Below, one piece after another: positions 19,518-36,101 of a stretch of 64,000 nt of DNA. The DNA comes from Vulcanimicrobiota bacterium. GTDB taxonomy: Bacteria > Vulcanimicrobiota > Vulcanimicrobiia > Eremiobacterales > Eremiobacteraceae. The notes under the pieces are model-generated. The model was not told where the DNA came from. It made no database searches and saw nothing but the letters and a program-made list of their open reading frames with translations. The position numbers and the translations under genes were made by a program. Where the stretch lies: the NCBI GenBank assembly GCA_963812135.1, contig CAWETU010000001.1:1216001-1280000 (forward strand). Direction: 5' to 3'. The stretch's first letter is position 1, and every line of letters starts with the position of its first letter.

Positions 19518-20417
19518 CTAGGTAAAGTCGCGCAAATTGCCTGGAGTCAGACCGGTGGCGCGCCGCACGCAACGAGCCATGTGGCTCTGGTTCGCAAAAC
19601 CGGCCTGAAGGGCCACATCGATCAATGGAAGCTTGCCGTTTAGGAGCAAATCGATCGCATATTCCACGCGGAGCCGGATGACATACTGATGAACCGGCGC
19701 GCCCACGGATCGCTTGAACAGCGCCTTGAAGTGCGAGGGGCTTAGGCTTGCGACTTCAGCGAGTTCGGCCAAGCGGAGGTCATGCGATAGGTGGTCGCGG
19801 ATGTAGTCAACCACACGTTGCAGTCGCCGCTTGGGCAAGCCATTGGGGATGCGCGACTCGACCGGTGCGTGGTGCGACAGCAGGCGCGTCGCCAGCGCCA
19901 ATCCGAGACTATCTGCGTACAGCCGACCGGTAGGCTCGCTCGCTTCCAATTCGGCCTTGATCGCCCAGCCGACGTGCTCGATTTGCGGATCCCTGAACTG
20001 CAGCTGCGGCGGCATCGAAACCCGATCTGGGTTCACATCCATTCCTTCGGCCGCCGTCTGCACGAGCGACGGGCTTAGACGGATGCACACGAAGGAGGTC
20101 GGGCCTTCGTCCTCCCATGCTCCGGAAGAGCCCAGGGGGATGACATCAATGTCACCCGCGATTTGCAAACGACGAGATACGGTCCCGTCGCGACGACATG
20201 TCGTCCGGATAGGCGGTCCTACTTGCATGCCGACCGTGAGTTGTTTCATGCACGGCACTTGGCTCACGCCGCCAGACGTGTCGTAGATGGTCGCTTCGAA
20301 CCCGGTCCAGAAGCGCTCGCGGCTGGTTTGCCGCGGCGAGAATTGCATTTCGCCTTCGTCGAGCGGAGTGTACTGCATTTTTCCGTAGCTCAGCCGAGCC
20401 GAAGATGTGTCTTTCAT
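19518..20417 (-). CDS. AraC family transcriptional regulator (paralogue of 2736..3605)
   Basis: AraC HTH motifs; ERFWTGFEA, GRLYAD.LGLALA, GLPKRRLQ shared with paralogue. Confidence 0.9.
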   Translation of the reverse strand: MKDTSSARLSYGKMQYTPLDEGEMQFSPRQTSRERFWTGFEATIYDTSGGVSQVPCMKQLTVGMQVGPPIRTTCRRDGTVSRRLQIAGDIDVIPLGSSGAWEDEGPTSFVCIRLSPSLVQTAAEGMDVNPDRVSMPPQLQFRDPQIEHVGWAIKAELEASEPTGRLYADSLGLALATRLLSHHAPVESRIPNGLPKRRLQRVVDYIRDHLSHDLRLAELAEVASLSPSHFKALFKRSVGAPVHQYVIRLRVEYAIDLLLNGKLPLIDVALQAGFANQSHMARCVRRATGLTPGNLRDFT

Positions 20418-20555
20418 ATCGATCGCGTTCGCGTTTGGAATCCGTAGCCGCCGTGACGGTGTCTATTTCGGCTTTCGGCACAGCGCGACATTTTCCCATC
20501 CGGCGTGACCTGAACACGTTCTGACTATTTAGAATAGAAATAGACGACGCGATCC

Positions 20556-21239
20556 CTAAATCACATCAACCTCAAATACAGCTAGAGTTGTGAAGAATTC
20601 TTGAGGCGAAAGTGCCCGTTCGCCCGGATTCGGGGCGACAAGGATGCCGAAAGTCGGCATTGGACCGCTATGGGGATATGGATCCCGAACCACGGCTCCG
20701 GCGACTTTCAACGGCTTACCGGCCGCATCAGCGTAGTAATAGACCGCGGTTAGCACCATTGCGTGCGACGGTACTAGGATCAGCAGTGGATTGTCGTTTG
20801 CCAACGCCGCGACGACCCTTGGCAGGTTCCCACTGAGCGATGTGCCGCTCGTCGTCACTGTCGAACCATCAGCACCGCTGGTGTACGTATGGTTAAGGTA
20901 TTTCGGAATGGCTTGCGTCGGAAGAGCCACAGGTATGGCCGCGCCAAAGAGGTCCTTGACGATGTCGTTTTGGGAAACAGTCCCGCCATGGTATGCGATA
21001 ATCATCGCCATCGATGCTGCGTAGCACCAAACTGGAGTTGTTTGAAACCGAAACGCGGGGTTCATCGAAACAGACGTGATTCCAGCGCCACATATTCGGG
21101 CGCCGGGGGATACTGGGTGACATGGAATCGTCGCCGCCAAGGCAGGCGCTCGATTCGTAGACTCAACGATCGCAAACACCAAGCTAAGGTGAAGCACGAT
21201 CAGAAAAACGAACCGTCTATTCACAAGAAAGTAACTCAC
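20556..21239 (-). CDS. Secreted papain-like cysteine protease (C39-like/C70 type)
   Basis: Q...WCYAAS..M, SHAMVL, VRDPYP give Q/C/H/D catalytic pattern; N-terminal hydrophobic segment. Confidence 0.75.
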   Translation of the reverse strand: MSYFLVNRRFVFLIVLHLSLVFAIVESTNRAPALAATIPCHPVSPGARICGAGITSVSMNPAFRFQTTPVWCYAASMAMIIAYHGGTVSQNDIVKDLFGAAIPVALPTQAIPKYLNHTYTSGADGSTVTTSGTSLSGNLPRVVAALANDNPLLILVPSHAMVLTAVYYYADAAGKPLKVAGAVVRDPYPHSGPMPTFGILVAPNPGERALSPQEFFTTLAVFEVDVI

Positions 21240-21375
21240 TATCAGGAATCACCGGCGATAAGCGAGACCGGCACAAGCTGGCGTTCTGTGCGTTGGTTTC
21301 AGGAGCCTGTCTGAATGTTCCGCGGCATCGTCATCGCGTTGTTTATCTTGTTGTTCGCCGTTGCGTCGCATTGTA

Positions 21376-21421
21376 ATGGTGGGCGCGAGAGGTCTCGAAC
21401 CTCTGACCCCTACAGTGTCAA
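21376..21421 (-). repeat. att-like direct repeat: 46-bp duplicate of the tRNA-Val(GAC) 3' half
   Basis: ATGGTGGGCGCGAGAGGTCTCGAACCTCTGACCCCTACAGTGTCAA identical to 24300..24345; identity ends at the edge of the anticodon loop. Confidence 0.95.
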
Positions 21422-21504
21422 AGAGCGAATGAAGTGCCAGCCTGAGAAGTTACGGTGCTTCTGGTGCCAGCCGGTATCAACGAATCGCCGCCCGTACCAG
21501 GTAG

Positions 21505-21525
21505 TTGGTCAGCATTTGGTCAGCA
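21505..21525 (+). repeat. Tandem TTGGTCAGCA x2, putative integrase arm-type sites (left)
   Basis: TTGGTCAGCA-t-TTGGTCAGCA, about 84 bp inside the left att. Confidence 0.7.
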
Positions 21526-21632
21526 ATTTGAAGCGCGGCTGACAAGCCCCCTCGACCCCTTGCTGGCCCTGAAAATGGAACTTGATCGTCGGGTGCGCAG
21601 TTCCAAAATGTTTCAAGAACTTTTCGCCGACT

Positions 21633-24074
21633 TCAGATCTTCAGCGCTTCTTCGATCGCCTGATCTTCTGACCAGGCAGCGCCTTCCGACATCAACTGCT
21701 CGAGGTACTTCTTGCCGAGATGCTCGACCAATGGCTGTTGAATCCAATCGACGCTTTCTTCTGTGAACATGTCTTCGAGCCAGCGCCATGATACCGGGCC
21801 TGCTCGCCCGCAGCCAAGCAACCGAGCCGCGCTTTCGAACTCGCCGCGCTGCATCGCAACGCCGGCGAGCGCTCGAAATGCGACTGAGAGCCCAAAGCCG
21901 ACGAATTCTTGGCGTGCGTGCGTCACTGCGTTGTGGGCGGTAGTCCTCGCCTCAGCCACCTTGTCTGCTCGTACTTCGTAGTACGCTCTGCTGCTTTGGG
22001 CCAACAGCGCCAAGCCCCGATCGCCCATCTCTTCCGCGATGTGTTGTACTTGTTCGATAAACTCTATCGCTCGGCGGGTATCGCCTGTCTGCTGCTCCAA
22101 CGTCGCGCGGTCAATCAACGCGAGCGCATAATTGCGGTTTACGGGAGAATCCTTATGCAACCCAAGTGCCTCATCAGAGAGCTTGCGCGCAGCATTGAGG
22201 TCCCCACGCTTGCGGTTCAGTTGCGCTAGCACTCCAAGCGCAGACGCGGCACGAAAGGGATTCGCGAGCTTGCGCGCTAGCGCGAGATTCTCGGATAAGA
22301 TGGATTCGGCTTCATCGAAACGATTCTTGTAAACGAGAGACTCGCCGTGATATTGCAACGCCCGAAGAAGCAGACGTTCGTCTTGTACGGCGCGTGCTGT
22401 TTGTAGCACTCGTTCGGAGGCGGCGACAGCGTCTTGCGGAGCGGTAAACACGATCATGCGTTGGGTGGCAAGCGCAAGACCAAGGGCAAGCAACGGGTGT
22501 CGCTCCGCGTCTATGAGCAGGAGCGCCGTCTCCGTCCAACGCCGCCCTTCGCGGAAATCCCGATCCATCCAATAGGAGAAAAGGACTTGCGCCATGTCAG
22601 CGCCGACCTTGGGGTCATTGCGTTGTGCGAGGCACCAGTCGAGCGCCGCGCGGATGTTGTCGATCTCCTGATCGATGGCCGCAAGATATACACTTTCAGC
22701 AACGGCAGAAGTGTCGTTAAGCACGCGCTTCACGTACTTGTGGTAGCACTGCGCATGCCGTTGTGCGATCGCGTCGAAGACGCCGGAACGTGCGAGAATT
22801 TCAGCGCCATATTGACGCAGCGACTCCAACAACCGATAGCGCTGCGACTCGCCACTAAACTCTACGACGACGAGCGATTTGTCGACGAGCGACGAGAGGT
22901 AGTCTAGAATCGCGAGCTCGTCGAGCGTTTCGCTTGCGCACACATCGCTCGCGGCCTGGAGCGTCCAACCGCCCTGAAAGATTGACAGGCGGTCGAATAG
23001 CGTTCGCTCGTCTTCGGTCAGCAGTTCGTAGCTCCAATCAATCGTGGCTCGCATCGTCTGCTGGCGCCGCAGGGCCGTACGGTCGCCTCCGGTGAGCAGA
23101 CGGAGGCGCTCTCCTAACCGCTGAGCCAGCTGGCTGGCGCTCAGGATCGTGATGCGCGCGGCCGCCAATTCGATGGCCAACGCGATGCCGTCCAAATGGC
23201 GGCAGATGTCGGCGACGATCGCCGATTTGCTCTCGTCAAACTCAAAGCGCGCATCGGCGGCGCTGGCCCGCGCGACAAACAACGCTACCGCACCGTAACC
23301 CAAGGCCTCTGCCGGGGACAGCGTCGCGTGGTCGGGCGGCACAGCAAGCGAAGGCACGCGATACACATGCTCGCCACTCACGTTGAGCCGTTCGCGGCTT
23401 GTCGCGAGAATCTTTACGTCGGGGCAACCCTTTAGGATGGCGGCTACGAACCGCGACGCTTCAGCCACAACGTGTTCGCAGTTGTCGAGGATCAGCAGCA
23501 GCCGTTTGCTCTTGAGGTACTGACGCAGCTGATCCAACGGCGCCCGCTCTCCTTGGAGTCGGATTTCGAGCGCCGTCGCGATCTCAGGGAGCACGAAGTC
23601 AGCCCCAGTCACGTGCGCGAGATCGACGAACCAGACGCCGTCGTCCAAGTCGTTGAGCAGGTCCGCCCCGGTTTGCAGAGCGAGGCGTGTCTTGCCCACG
23701 CCGCCGGTACCGACGAGCGTGAAGAACCGCGCGTTTGCAAGCTGAGCCTTCACCTCGTCCAGTTCTGCGTCACGTCCGATGAAGGTCGTCTGCTGAATCG
23801 GGAGATTGTTCAGAGGAACATGAGGCTGGCTCGAAGGTGCAGCCCGGGCAAACCCACTCCGAAGAACGGCCGCGGCGAGATCAACCCGCGAATGCACGTC
23901 CAACTTGCTGAAAATCGAGCTGACATGACTTTCGACCGTCCGCTCGCTTAGGTAGAGCACGTCGGCGATCGCACGATTCGACTTCCCGTGAGCGACCAAT
24001 TCAGCAACTTCGCGCTCGCGAGCGGATAGAAGGTTCGTCTGCACTACGTCATTTGGCGTCGTGTCGTTGTCCAT
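21633..24074 (-). CDS. LuxR-HTH + STAND ATPase + TPR transcriptional regulator
   Basis: N-terminal [26 protein letters not shown]...FIGR; Walker [36 protein letters not shown] tail. Confidence 0.92.
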
Positions 24075-24208
24075 AAGAAGGCGATGGTATCGTGACCATC
24101 AGTGAGACAGTAGTTAAGTTGGGATCCGGTCCGAGCTCTGTTCGCCGAGGTTCGCCGCGAACTCTGCCGCCGGCAAGTTTGCCAAGGGCCGACGGATCGC
24201 CGCACCAC

Positions 24209-24228
24209 TTGGTCAGCATTGGTCAGCA
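24209..24228 (+). repeat. Tandem TTGGTCAGCA x2, putative integrase arm-type sites (right)
   Basis: TTGGTCAGCATTGGTCAGCA, about 72 bp inside the right att. Confidence 0.7.
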
Positions 24229-24300
24229 TTTTTGGAGAGTACCACAAGCGCTGAAGCGGTTGAAGAAGCCACAGGGGGCCTGTGGCATCAAGGTTTCCGA

Positions 24301-24375
24301 TGGTGGGCGCGAGAGGTCTCGAACCTCTGACCCCTACAGTGTCAATGTAGTGCTCTACCCCTGAGCTACGCGCCC
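24301..24375 (-). tRNA. tRNA-Val(GAC)
   Basis: GGGCGCGTAGCTCAGGGGTAGAGCACTACA-TTGACAC-TGTAGGGGTCAGAGGTTCGAGACCTCTCGCGCCCACCA; cloverleaf, encoded CCA. Confidence 0.97.
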
Positions 24376-24477
24376 GAGACACGTGCTTTTCTCGCCTACC
24401 GACAAACCGCCCTCCGCGCAACGCCATCTGCTGTGTCGGAAAGGGAGCTCTCACCATGAGGCGCTAACAGGGCTGTC

Positions 24478-25047
24478 TTGGGACTCGTGATATCCGCGGA
24501 ATACTTAACCGCGGCCGCTTCCATTGGAACGTTCATCGTGATCGCCGCAACGGCGATCGCCGCAATCGTGCAGTTGCGTCACATGCGCGCTAACAATCAA
24601 TTGACCGGCTTGCTCAACGTGCTGGCGCGCATTGAAGATCCAACCTTCAACGAATGGGCCGACATGGCACGAGAACAAATCGCCGAAAAGCTATCGGATC
24701 CGACGTATCGGCGTGCGCTCGAAGATGGGTCGTTCCCCCGTCGGAACAACGCCTGGCTCAATCTGTGTAATTCCTACGAGTGGGTCGGCAGTCTCATCAA
24801 ACACGACCTGATCCCGGAGGAACCATTCATGGATGTCTACTCCGCGCGGGTCTTGTCCACGTGGGCCGTGATCGAGGAAGTCGTCGCGATCAGGCGACGC
24901 AGCGGTGACTCGTCGTCATGGGAGAACTTCGAATACCTCGTCGTTCGTGCGCGAGAATGGGAACGTCAGTTTCCCAACGGCTCGTATCCCAAGTCGTCGC
25001 CGCGTTTGCAGCTCAAGGACAAGTGGCTGCCGCACGATCGCAAATAG
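24478..25047 (+). CDS. Membrane-anchored hypothetical protein (DUF4760-like); start uncertain
   Basis: N-terminal TM ending AIVQLRH; N.YE.VG.LIK...I and WENFEYL motifs. Confidence 0.7.
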   Translation: MGLVISAEYLTAAASIGTFIVIAATAIAAIVQLRHMRANNQLTGLLNVLARIEDPTFNEWADMAREQIAEKLSDPTYRRALEDGSFPRRNNAWLNLCNSYEWVGSLIKHDLIPEEPFMDVYSARVLSTWAVIEEVVAIRRRSGDSSSWENFEYLVVRAREWERQFPNGSYPKSSPRLQLKDKWLPHDRK

Positions 25048-25052
25048 ACGGC

Positions 25053-25634
25053 TCAATCCGAAGCGCTGCTAAGGACCTTCGACACGAATGCCGCGCGTGA
25101 CGGCGCACGCGCCTTCGTCAGCACGCGCTTGATGTGGCTCTCCACAGTATTCTGGCTGACCTGCAAGCGTTCAGCGATCGCCCGATTCCCCAAGCCGTCG
25201 AGAACGAGCTCAGCAACCTCAGATTCGCGGTGCGTCAGTCGATAGGCGGCGAGACTGTGCCGCGGGCGGCGACGGGCGATCGGTTCAAAAGAGATCAGCA
25301 AATAATCGCCGGCCTCGCTCTGCATAAGCTCGCCGCGGCAACACAGATCCGGGGTCACCGCTGAAACGGGCGGCTCCCCCGAGGCGAGCGCTTTGCGTAG
25401 CGCGCGCACATGCCGGCGAAAAATCTCGGGGATGACGGCGAAATCATCAGCGCGTCCAGCTAGCCCGAACTGTTCCCGCATCAGCTCGACCGCGCGCGAG
25501 CTCGCCATCGCAAGGGCGTCATCCGGCGCGATCAACGCCACCTGGAACGCTTGGCGATGCTTCGCGGCCGCAAGCGAGTCCGATCCGTCAAACTCCGAGA
25601 TCTCGACCAGGTCGACAGGCGCGTGCTCGGACAT
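25053..25634 (-). CDS. LuxR C-terminal HTH regulator
   Basis: LTHRESEVAELVLDGLGNRAIAERLQVSQNTVESHIKRVLTK. Confidence 0.8.
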   Translation of the reverse strand: MSEHAPVDLVEISEFDGSDSLAAAKHRQAFQVALIAPDDALAMASSRAVELMREQFGLAGRADDFAVIPEIFRRHVRALRKALASGEPPVSAVTPDLCCRGELMQSEAGDYLLISFEPIARRRPRHSLAAYRLTHRESEVAELVLDGLGNRAIAERLQVSQNTVESHIKRVLTKARAPSRAAFVSKVLSSASD

Positions 25635-25715
25635 CTCACTAACTCTTGTACCCAGCGGCCTGCGTCCGGGAACGCCCACGAAGGTCCTTTCGGCCTCGGA
25701 TTGAAGCGGCAATGC

Positions 25716-26324
25716 ATGCGAGCCTTACGCCCCGCATCGGAGTTCACGTTGAGCGAGCTGCGCAAATTGCGTAGCTTGCGCACGCCCGCCGGCGTCCAGA
25801 AGTTCATCAATCAGATGACCTATCATGACGCCGACACGGCCTGGTCGCCGCGGCGCGTGCTGCGCGAGCGCACGGCGCACTGCCTCGAAGGCGCCATCTT
25901 CGCGGCCGCGGCATTGCGCGTGATCGGCTTTCCGCCGCTCGTCCTCGACCTCGAGGCCGAGCACGACACCGACCATGTCATCGCGCCGTTCAAGATCGGT
26001 TCGGCGTGGGGCGCGGTCGCGGCGTCGAACTTCACCGGCGTCAGAGGCCGCGAGCCGGTCTACCGCACGCTACGCGAACTCGCCATGAGCTACTTCAACG
26101 ACTATTTCAATCTGATGGGTGAGCGGTCGCTGCGGCGCTATTCGCGCCCGGTCAACCTCGCGCGGTTCGACAATCTCCATTGGATGACCACTGAGAAATC
26201 GGTCTGGTTCATCGCCGAGCGGCTGGTCGACGTGCCGCACATCAAACTGCTGACGCCGCCGATGATCAAGCGGCTGACGAGGGTGGACAAGCGCGGCGTC
26301 GGCGCCGGCATCTTCGGGCGCTGA
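25716..26324 (+). CDS. Conserved hypothetical protein, transglutaminase-like Cys/His fold
   Basis: SPRRVL....AHCLEGA.FAAA, D.DHVIA, WGAVA.SNF, REPVYRTLREL. Confidence 0.75.
   Translation: MRALRPASEFTLSELRKLRSLRTPAGVQKFINQMTYHDADTAWSPRRVLRERTAHCLEGAIFAAAALRVIGFPPLVLDLEAEHDTDHVIAPFKIGSAWGAVAASNFTGVRGREPVYRTLRELAMSYFNDYFNLMGERSLRRYSRPVNLARFDNLHWMTTEKSVWFIAERLVDVPHIKLLTPPMIKRLTRVDKRGVGAGIFGR

Positions 26325-36026: not shown

Positions 36027-36101
<75 letters not shown>

Follow-up and report, generated by a model that had tools for sequence, protein, structure and literature searches.

Introduction

Mobile elements that have lost their integration and transfer genes while keeping both attachment sites, attL and attR, are known as cis-mobilisable elements (CIMEs), which can undergo accretion with an incoming element (PMC5704250). 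The part of that article on which we draw, a summary of Pavlovic 2004 and Bellanger 2011, traces the definition of CIMEs and of tandem accretion at tRNA genes to the ICESt1-related elements of Streptococcus thermophilus (PMC5704250). A second case, in the terms of the relevant sections of PMC3146451, is that of Dehalococcoides, whose ssrA islands form tandem arrays and include 15 islands without an integration module that were proposed as CIMEs. For islands in general, the portion of the Islander paper used here assigns 2083 of 3919 islands to the anticodon-centred site class and reports only 4 tandems of three or more (PMC4383910). Here we analyse a 64,000-nucleotide stretch of DNA from a Vulcanimicrobiota bacterium of the Eremiobacteraceae (contig CAWETU010000001.1, positions 1,216,001 to 1,280,000, hereafter the window), in which a unit of 2924 bp is inserted at a tRNA-Val(GAC) gene. 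We conclude, with a probability of roughly three in four, that this unit is an integrase-deleted, CIME-type derivative of an Eremiobacterota island family that targets tRNA-Val(GAC) and carries a tyrosine integrase of about 430 aa. It belongs to a kind of element already known from CIMEs, Dehalococcoides ssrA islands and tycheposon remnants, of which it is a decayed representative, and does not constitute a novel sort of satellite.

Results

The unit is delimited by a perfect 46-bp direct repeat (21376-21421 and 24300-24345, spacing 2924), present twice in the window, where shuffled sequences give an expectation of 0, and found in only these 2 copies in the whole genome of origin (2.79 Mb, 6 contigs, 98% complete). 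An intact tRNA-Val(GAC), the integration target, was located by ARAGORN at 24301-24375 on the minus strand, and the repeat corresponds to its positions 31-75 plus one further base: it opens with the 7-nt anticodon loop (TTGACAC) and ends with CCA and one more base, and the original prediction had likewise placed the limit of identity at this loop. The inner, attR-like core (24300-24345, minus strand) makes up positions 31-75 of the intact tRNA with the additional base, while the outer, attL-like core (21376-21421, minus strand) is a displaced 3' fragment of the same tRNA that matches the inner one at 46 of 46 positions. An intact tRNA gene and a displaced 3' fragment in direct orientation thus bound the insert, which is the signature used by Islander, and the identity block starts at the loop and reaches the tRNA 3' end, as in the anticodon-loop class in the definition given in PMC4383910. 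Islander also expects the island to contain an integrase gene, of which our unit retains no more than a 26-codon remnant of the tail.

Just inside both cores lie tandem copies of the 10-mer TTGGTCAGCA, at 21505 and 21516 on the outer side and at 24209 and 24219 on the inner side; the window contains 5 copies against 0.08 expected. The outer pair, GTTGGTCAGCATTTGGTCAGCA (21504-21525), has a 1-nt spacer and closes the outer (P') arm (21422-21528), in which it follows an 82-nt spacer with GTGCCA and GTATCA repeats. The inner (P) pair, two adjoining copies of TTGGTCAGCA without spacer (24209-24228), encodes the GQHWSAF motif of an integrase tail. The two copies of GTGCCAGCC that had been pointed out in the outer spacer are present at 21434 and 21464, and their statistical signal is weak alone (3 in the window against 0.65 expected, with 3 of 100 shuffles reaching 3). 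Between the arms, as predicted, there is a single long open reading frame (ORF), which encodes a regulator of 813 aa (21633-24074, minus strand).

Directly after the tRNA 3' end the element supplies a hairpin (24265-24289, minus strand), a probable tRNA terminator with a weak U-tract, whose fold energy of -19 kcal/mol (z -2.85) was equalled by 0 of 200 shuffles; a terminator scan requiring at least 5 T in 8 bases did not call it. The inserted element restores the 3' part of the tRNA and provides a hairpin behind it. A structured RNA in the outer arm was rejected, two folds giving z-scores of -0.6 and 0.0. The GC content of the island shows no contrast with its surroundings.

Two genomes of the same genus, G005 and G006, have no arms at this site; a native hairpin terminator comes directly after the tRNA, and the flank behind it is unrelated. 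Relative to these two sites the 2.9 kb of the window are an insertion, in agreement with the predicted site-specific integration at the tRNA-Val anticodon loop. Beyond the outer repeat of the window, the native terminator and flank of the tRNA are missing. The host flank found there (21315-21375, plus strand) is the start of a signal-peptide gene (MFRGIVIA...), of which ~20 codons remain before it is cut off at the tRNA fragment. A segment of 92 bases (21277-21368) is 89-92% identical to G005 and G006, where the gene continues, and homology to the signal-peptide gene of these congeners fades within ~10 bases of the outer edge of the repeat. In G005 this gene lies ~6.3 kb from a displaced tRNA fragment on the same contig, and 3.4 kb of G006 located between the equivalents of window positions 21215 and 21277 are absent from the window, a further rearrangement of the region. 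Since the DNA on the left is a truncated distant gene and not the native flank, the original downstream flank was lost after integration, and these comparisons show that a later deletion removed it. The segment 21277-21368, which comprises the signal peptide of the truncated gene and the region upstream of it, is also unusually conserved, at 89-92% between species whose neighbouring genes are ~74-78% identical.

A clue to the origin of the element lies in its inner arm. The 26 codons at 24196-24273 (plus strand), IAAPLGQHWSAFLESTTSAEAVEEAT, which contain the inner arm pair, match residues 373-398 of an intact 427-aa integrase, P0003, at 14 of 26 positions (pairwise BLASTP, E 7e-6). No remnant of the catalytic domain was found in the element by tblastn with 4 integrase sequences, and 135 bp separate the start codon of the regulator from the inner arm pair. 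The claim that the element holds no integrase remnant thus stands for the catalytic domain and fails for the tail. In a relative, G011, the DNA just inside the inner arms of elements 1 and 2 of a tandem array encodes the C-terminus of a tyrosine recombinase, reading HPKVVADRLGHS...LDVYSHV...KFGQHLSAF and ...HPKVVADRLGHSTTRMTLDVYSHV...KFGQHLSAF...; these remnants match PF00589 over positions 119-168 (E 7e-11) and 135-168 (E 2e-4), and the arm repeats sit within the integrase coding tail. Intact cognate integrases were found in metagenomes (P0003-P0009, 405-451 aa, with PF14659 (Phage_int_SAM_3) and PF00589 domains), which share 74-87% identity with the G011 fragment in the region used for the search. 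Four of five tails examined finish in ...FGQH(W/L)..., as in ...KFGQHWSAFSG... and ...KFGQHLVSNLVSI..., and that of P0008 has ...IGQHP...; all five proteins run on into the translated tRNA core and two of them reach the translated 5' half of the tRNA. The arms of the P0003-P0009 contigs were deduced from these peptide tails only, according to which the integrases would carry the arm motif at their C-terminus.

Together, the match of the 26-codon tail, the missing catalytic domain and the 135-bp gap establish, at the level of sequence homology, that the ancestor of the window element was an island with an integrase gene, which has since been lost by deletion as far as the arms. Three features of a CIME are found here: both attachment sites are kept, with cores identical at 46/46 and two arm pairs that fit the family consensus; integration and transfer genes are absent, the regulator being the only ORF; and the tail, the sister remnants and the intact cognates show that it derives from an element that shared its att sites and bore an integrase. 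The idea of a cassette that has always lacked an integrase is contradicted by an inner arm that is an integrase 3' tail and by sister elements with larger remnants. The original prediction had itself named integrase remnants in the element or in relatives as evidence that would count against it, and these are what we observe. We also considered an integron gene cassette and rejected it, the junctions being tRNA fragments with arm-type repeats and not attC sites, and the sole tyrosine recombinase of the genome being Xer-like.

The element belongs to a family. When positions 20400-25800 were compared by BLASTN with 40 relatives, the tRNA fragment and the adjoining ~100 bases were found in several copies per genome. 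In G011 the tRNA and 4 more core copies delimit 4 tandem elements of 5588, 4206, 5029 and 841 bp, and in G251, a metagenome-assembled genome found through the arm motif, the tRNA and 6 core copies delimit 6 elements of 1388, 957, 13399, 8566, 2984 and 4232 bp; G008, G017, G022 and G005 have 2 or 3 core copies each. An exact search with the 22-base arm pair returned 6 loci in the genome collection and 32 in metagenomes. Exact matches in L032 (Actinomycetota), L035 (Desulfarculaceae) and L064 had no similarity to the tRNA core or the outer arm and were treated as unrelated. After removal of duplicates, 24 distinct copies with a core (at most 3 mismatches in the last 31 bases) and an arm pair were aligned. 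Column identity was 0.4-0.99 from the core through GTTGGTCAGCATTTGGTCAGCAATTT and 0.3-0.5 directly after it. The fixed distance from the core in the 24 copies and this sharp boundary of conservation support the reading of the tandem 10-mers as putative arm-type sites. In the family consensus, GTGCCA stands at both places where the outer spacer of the window has a GTGCCAGCC copy; column identity around the first is lower (0.4-0.9) than in the conserved block that holds the second (0.6-0.9). The spacer between core and arm has a mean identity of 66% between copies and of 48-83% within a single array; such divergence of the outer arms indicates that the arrays arose by separate integrations and not by recent duplications.

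The inner sides are also alike. The window and four G011 junctions share the arm repeats, a hairpin ~25 bases further on and then ATCAAGGTTTCCGA before the core. The P-arm junctions of G011 have a hairpin and a T-run at the position equivalent to the window hairpin; the only one that was folded (L016:2901-2956) gave a z-score of -1.37, with 19 of 200 shuffles as good. Besides the window, inner arm pairs stand at the equivalent position in 5 of 49 P-side flanks (two in L016, and one each in L053, L059 and L066), degenerate pairs occur at element 4 of L016 and in L045, and an inverted pair is seen at two G251 junctions. Integrase-derived sequence comes to an end no more than ~0-20 nt from the arms in three elements, that of the window and elements 3 and 4 of G011. 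On the metagenome contig L045, the 841-bp fourth element of G011 adjoins the intact tRNA through a junction inside the core; its inner arm is identical in type up to the core, and in G011 three more elements stand in between. The content of these two arrays differs at the core, as gain or loss by site-specific recombination predicts.

The same ends enclose many unrelated cargos, as had been anticipated. Of 66 ORFs of at least 90 aa predicted in four arrays, 59 were scanned; the other 7 overlapped cores or known integrase fragments, crossed the locus boundary or lay outside the array. Matches included RHS-repeat proteins, COX1/COX2, Mrp/NADH-dehydrogenase-like subunits, a sulfatase and hydrolases, as well as TetR with a short-chain dehydrogenase, a solute-binding protein, PRiA4_ORF3, small helix-turn-helix (HTH) proteins and DUF4760. 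No integrase, phage or conjugation family was matched by the 59 ORFs at E<=0.001. Cargo genes are in mixed orientation. The COX1/COX2 genes of G251 element 4 and of the G017 element are only 68-69% identical, so that a recent exchange is not demonstrated. In L016 (G011:C18, 3123-17381), RHS-repeat proteins are encoded by three of the four stacked elements; small unassigned ORFs follow their RHS core and tip regions, as in orphan toxin-immunity modules. Near-empty units, with little beyond the two arms, are those of 841 bp (L016, 17725-18519; one 148-aa ORF with a weak cupin match) and 957 bp (G251:C2, around 282488-283398; a 143-aa HTH protein). At G251:C2:305202-305232 and 297305-297335, and in L030, L031, L043 and L058, a tRNA-Asp 3' fragment lies near the arm pair. 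It is found at most ~30 bases past the outer pair and in opposite orientation (CTGTCACG...GGTTCGAGTCC), so that the arm sites are enclosed by a tRNA-Val and a tRNA-Asp fragment placed back to back; in the window, no more than a degenerate trace of the latter is present, at 21529-21560.

The genome of origin contains one gene with a PF00589 domain, XerC/D-like, which scores 288 bits with XerC (cut-off 335), 265 bits with XerD and 128.6 bits with the integron-integrase model (cut-off 265). Neither a serine recombinase (PF00239) nor a homologue of P0005 at E<=1e-30 was detected in this genome. Among the 32 genomes of the family, the closest intact integrase is that of G014, 56% identical and located at tRNA-Val(TAC). 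In G012 and G020, intact integrases of 444-451 aa adjoin tRNA-Val(GAC); they are 44-45% identical to P0005, and the TTGGTCAGCA arms are absent from their sites. We surveyed 1.6 kb on the inner side of each of 49 distinct core sites with P0005 as the query. A near-full match (residues 1-374) was obtained in G020 and partial ones in G012, whose flank ends with the locus, and in G013, an unpublished genome; short remnants were seen at 2 G011 and 2 G251 junctions.

Public reads were also consulted: 7 soil runs matched, the best with 0.44 of the words, and 4 of them were examined. Support for the assembly is confined to two places, 24249-24420, bridged by a contig of X3, from another study, and 21417-21572, covered by a contig from X1. 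One X1 contig has a loose end at 24299, with 3 differences, and looks like the tRNA-Val context of another organism.

The regulator carried by the element has a GerE HTH at residues 15-67 (E 5.6e-19), a STAND NTPase (AAA_22/NB-ARC/nSTAND1) at residues 95-235 and TPR_12/TPR_MalT repeats at residues 511-722, all from Pfam. With MalT/LAL and AfsR-type STAND regulators it shares a P-loop STAND NTPase, a TPR sensor region and a LuxR-type HTH; unlike in MalT/LAL, where the HTH is C-terminal, the HTH is N-terminal here and the domain order is reversed. Membership of either group was rejected on this domain order and on NCBIfam scores far below the cut-offs (MalT, 31.9 bits for a cut-off of 537; AfsR, 52 bits for a cut-off of 1430). 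A role in defence was also rejected: PADLOC gave only a CARF-model match confined to the HTH and a weak mad8 match on the NTPase. Paralogues with 64-69% DNA identity are numerous in the genome of origin and in relatives (BLASTN).

Further features were noted around the insertion and in relatives. On the 5' side of the tRNA, ~1.36 kb (24376-25739) containing a DUF4760 gene (24478-25047) and a LuxR-type gene (25053-25712, minus strand) are absent at this place in G005 and G006, and homology resumes at 25740 (74%); a DUF4760 gene is also cargo of G251 element 3. A tRNA-Val(CAC) gene lies at 36027-36101, 11.7 kb from tRNA-Val(GAC), while the distance between the two genes is 0.6 kb in G011 and 6.3 kb in G012, which suggests insertions between them in the genome of the window. 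In G005, ~410 bases that follow the intact tRNA at the end of contig C3 (L022) recur after the displaced core and arm at the start of contig C5 (L017), with 95.8% identity over 426 bases, flank and core being separated by 18 additional bases; either two strains, one with an empty and one with an occupied site, or a real duplication could account for this. A second stack without integrase is found in the genome of origin at C1:1291033-1302173, 11-22 kb past the end of the window, where the 3' part of tRNA-Asp(GTC) recurs three times behind the gene (1295641, 1300080 and 1302143); every copy comes with a hairpin and with an arm repeat, TTGACACCAA, unlike that of the window. The region of this stack also holds a paralogue of the window's STAND-LuxR regulator (1291546-1291968, minus strand).

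Discussion

We propose the following history for the 2924-bp unit. An integrase-bearing ancestor would have recombined with tRNA-Val(GAC), by a crossover somewhere in the 46-bp identity block, the anticodon loop being the likeliest place. A later deletion would have removed the integrase gene as far as the arm sites, bringing the LuxR-STAND regulator to 135 bp from the arm, and a further deletion would have taken the native flank outside the displaced tRNA fragment. The element would now be unable to move alone, in a genome devoid of a cognate integrase; if a related island with an integrase arrived at this tRNA, it could release the element as a circle of 2924 bp or take it along by accretion, with mobilisation in cis or in trans. 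As core and arms are intact, an incoming related integrase could move the element, and we consider mobilisation of this kind plausible. That the att and arm sites are still usable by such an integrase is held tentatively, the balance tilting slightly the other way. These cis sites look as though they have been under selection, because conservation stops sharply at the arm pair and because the integrase-derived sequence ends ~0-20 bases from the arms in the window and in G011 elements 3 and 4.

Several observations weigh against this interpretation. The 22-mer arm pair was the search key in both the genome-collection and the metagenome searches, so its perfect conservation there is partly a matter of ascertainment; in 10 copies found independently (the window and the BLAST loci), the pair is perfect in 7, has a 1-nt insertion in 2, one of which also has a mismatch, and is degenerate in 1. 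The perfect 46/46 identity of the cores is too short to tell a recent insertion from selection. Cognate integrases, which had been expected elsewhere, do exist in metagenomes (P0003-P0009), but none occurs in the genome of origin and no intact one above 56% identity among the 32 family genomes. No integrase was found on the inner side of 42 of the 49 core sites (4 of the flanks being shorter than 400 bases), and a possible meaning of this near-universal absence is that the family normally propagates as integrase-free units, which would then not be the outcome of decay. BLASTN revealed no copy of the regulator above 69% DNA identity in the genome of origin and the 40 relatives, so that a recent transfer is not demonstrated. 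Finally, neither a circle junction, nor an empty site, nor a joint across the 2924 bp was seen in the read contigs, which are 150-570 nt long with a depth of 2-6. The mobilisation in trans put forward in the original prediction is thereby reduced to a possibility.

With no nearby helper and no excision product, the element could also be an inert relic of the same origin, whose sites are no longer used and look intact owing to a young insertion or to the shortness of the repeat. The absence of a helper from the genome itself and, above 56% identity, from the family genomes would fit such a relic, as would the outer host flank already deleted, the excision products missing from short, low-depth contigs and the divergence of the outer-arm spacers to 66% mean identity. 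We nevertheless regard it as rather unlikely: the arm pair and parts of the outer arm are conserved across genera while the cargo and the sequence past the arm are unrelated, at least 3 integrase-less elements (the window, G011 elements 3 and 4) end ~0-20 nt from the arms as if loss of the arms were not tolerated, and array content at the core differs between close strains. That the whole results from something other than an integrase, either a local duplication of the tRNA 3' end or an assembly artefact at the repeat, appears most improbable. Although the left junction is not a clean attB flank, the core, the ~106-bp outer arm and the ~95-bp inner arm are common to many loci in other genomes and metagenomes, the X3 and X1 contigs span 24249-24420 and 21417-21572, and a 46-bp repeat is too short to mislead an assembly of 6 contigs; the prediction of an att-bounded insertion and not a misassembly is upheld on these grounds.

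One may further ask whether, in line with the original prediction, integrase-free units are dedicated non-autonomous cassettes, the normal form of the family, captured and shuffled at tRNA-Val by a rare helper integrase as integron cassettes are by IntI. The 42 of 49 core sites lacking any trace of integrase on the inner side speak for it, together with rows of 4 and 6 units that contain no intact integrase, units as small as 841-957 bp and 59 scanned cargo ORFs among which not one belongs to a phage, conjugation or integrase family. Yet the inner arm is integrase coding sequence, which points to an integrase-bearing ancestry, integrase remnants of varying length exist, the mixed orientation of the cargo gives no hint of a common promoter as in integrons, and no helper was seen beside such a row; we judge this explanation quite improbable. 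In a broader version, the tRNA-Val(GAC) locus of Eremiobacterota and the tRNA-Asp locus of the genome of origin would form an integron-like capture platform, whose normal units would be integrase-free cassettes of 0.8-13 kb keeping selected attP-like junctions of ~250 bp (the inner arm being a fossil integrase tail), stacked, shuffled and exchanged by a rare, transient helper island with an integrase of the P0003/P0005 type. This version we put forward as a speculative and unlikely one.

An integrase-deleted, CIME-type derivative also fits what is described of related systems, in the parts of the cited sources considered here. The CIMEs of S. thermophilus have likewise lost their integration genes and kept attL and attR at a tRNA 3' end (PMC5704250), and their tandem accretion has a counterpart in the rows seen in relatives of our unit, formed by repeated integration at the regenerated target. 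They differ from the present family by their host, a Firmicutes bacterium there and Eremiobacterota here, and by a conjugative parent, none being known here, with 0 of the 59 scanned array ORFs being conjugation genes; our units are very small (0.8-13 kb) and their mobilisation is putative. The ssrA islands of Dehalococcoides also stand in tandem behind a single small-RNA gene, whose 3' end recurs at the boundary of each island, and their integrase ORF also runs into the 3' end of the target gene (PMC3146451). However, these islands rely on the serine recombinase DsiB, a 20-bp repeat and transfer-messenger RNA, whereas in the family of the window the recombinase is a tyrosine integrase, the repeat measures 46 bp and starts at the anticodon loop, and arm-type repeats are present. 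The islands of Islander share with our unit an intact tRNA gene and a displaced 3' fragment in direct orientation that mark their ends, but the integrase gene demanded of each island, in the description given in PMC4383910, excludes units of this kind by design. In the tycheposons of Prochlorococcus, as presented in the preprint sections used (bioRxiv 10.1101/2020.12.28.424599), successive integrations at one tRNA push older elements inward, fragmented integrases and extra partial tRNAs are left behind, and the cargo is adaptive and not viral; integrases and hosts are different, and replication modules are present there, none being seen in the family of the window. No title found in the literature on CIMEs with integrase and tRNA, on sublocation and on tycheposons concerned Eremiobacterota, none of these searches being aimed at that phylum.

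The element reveals no new mechanism. It shows how accessory genes get parked at tRNA genes in a poorly known soil phylum without cultured genetic models, the parked cargo of the window and its relatives consisting of regulators, RHS toxin genes, oxidase operons and hydrolases. The defined cis sites, a 46-bp core and TTGGTCAGCA arm pairs, together with candidate cognate integrases, make the system testable and perhaps useful as an integration tool, and the family adds one more lineage in which integrase-less units outnumber autonomous islands.

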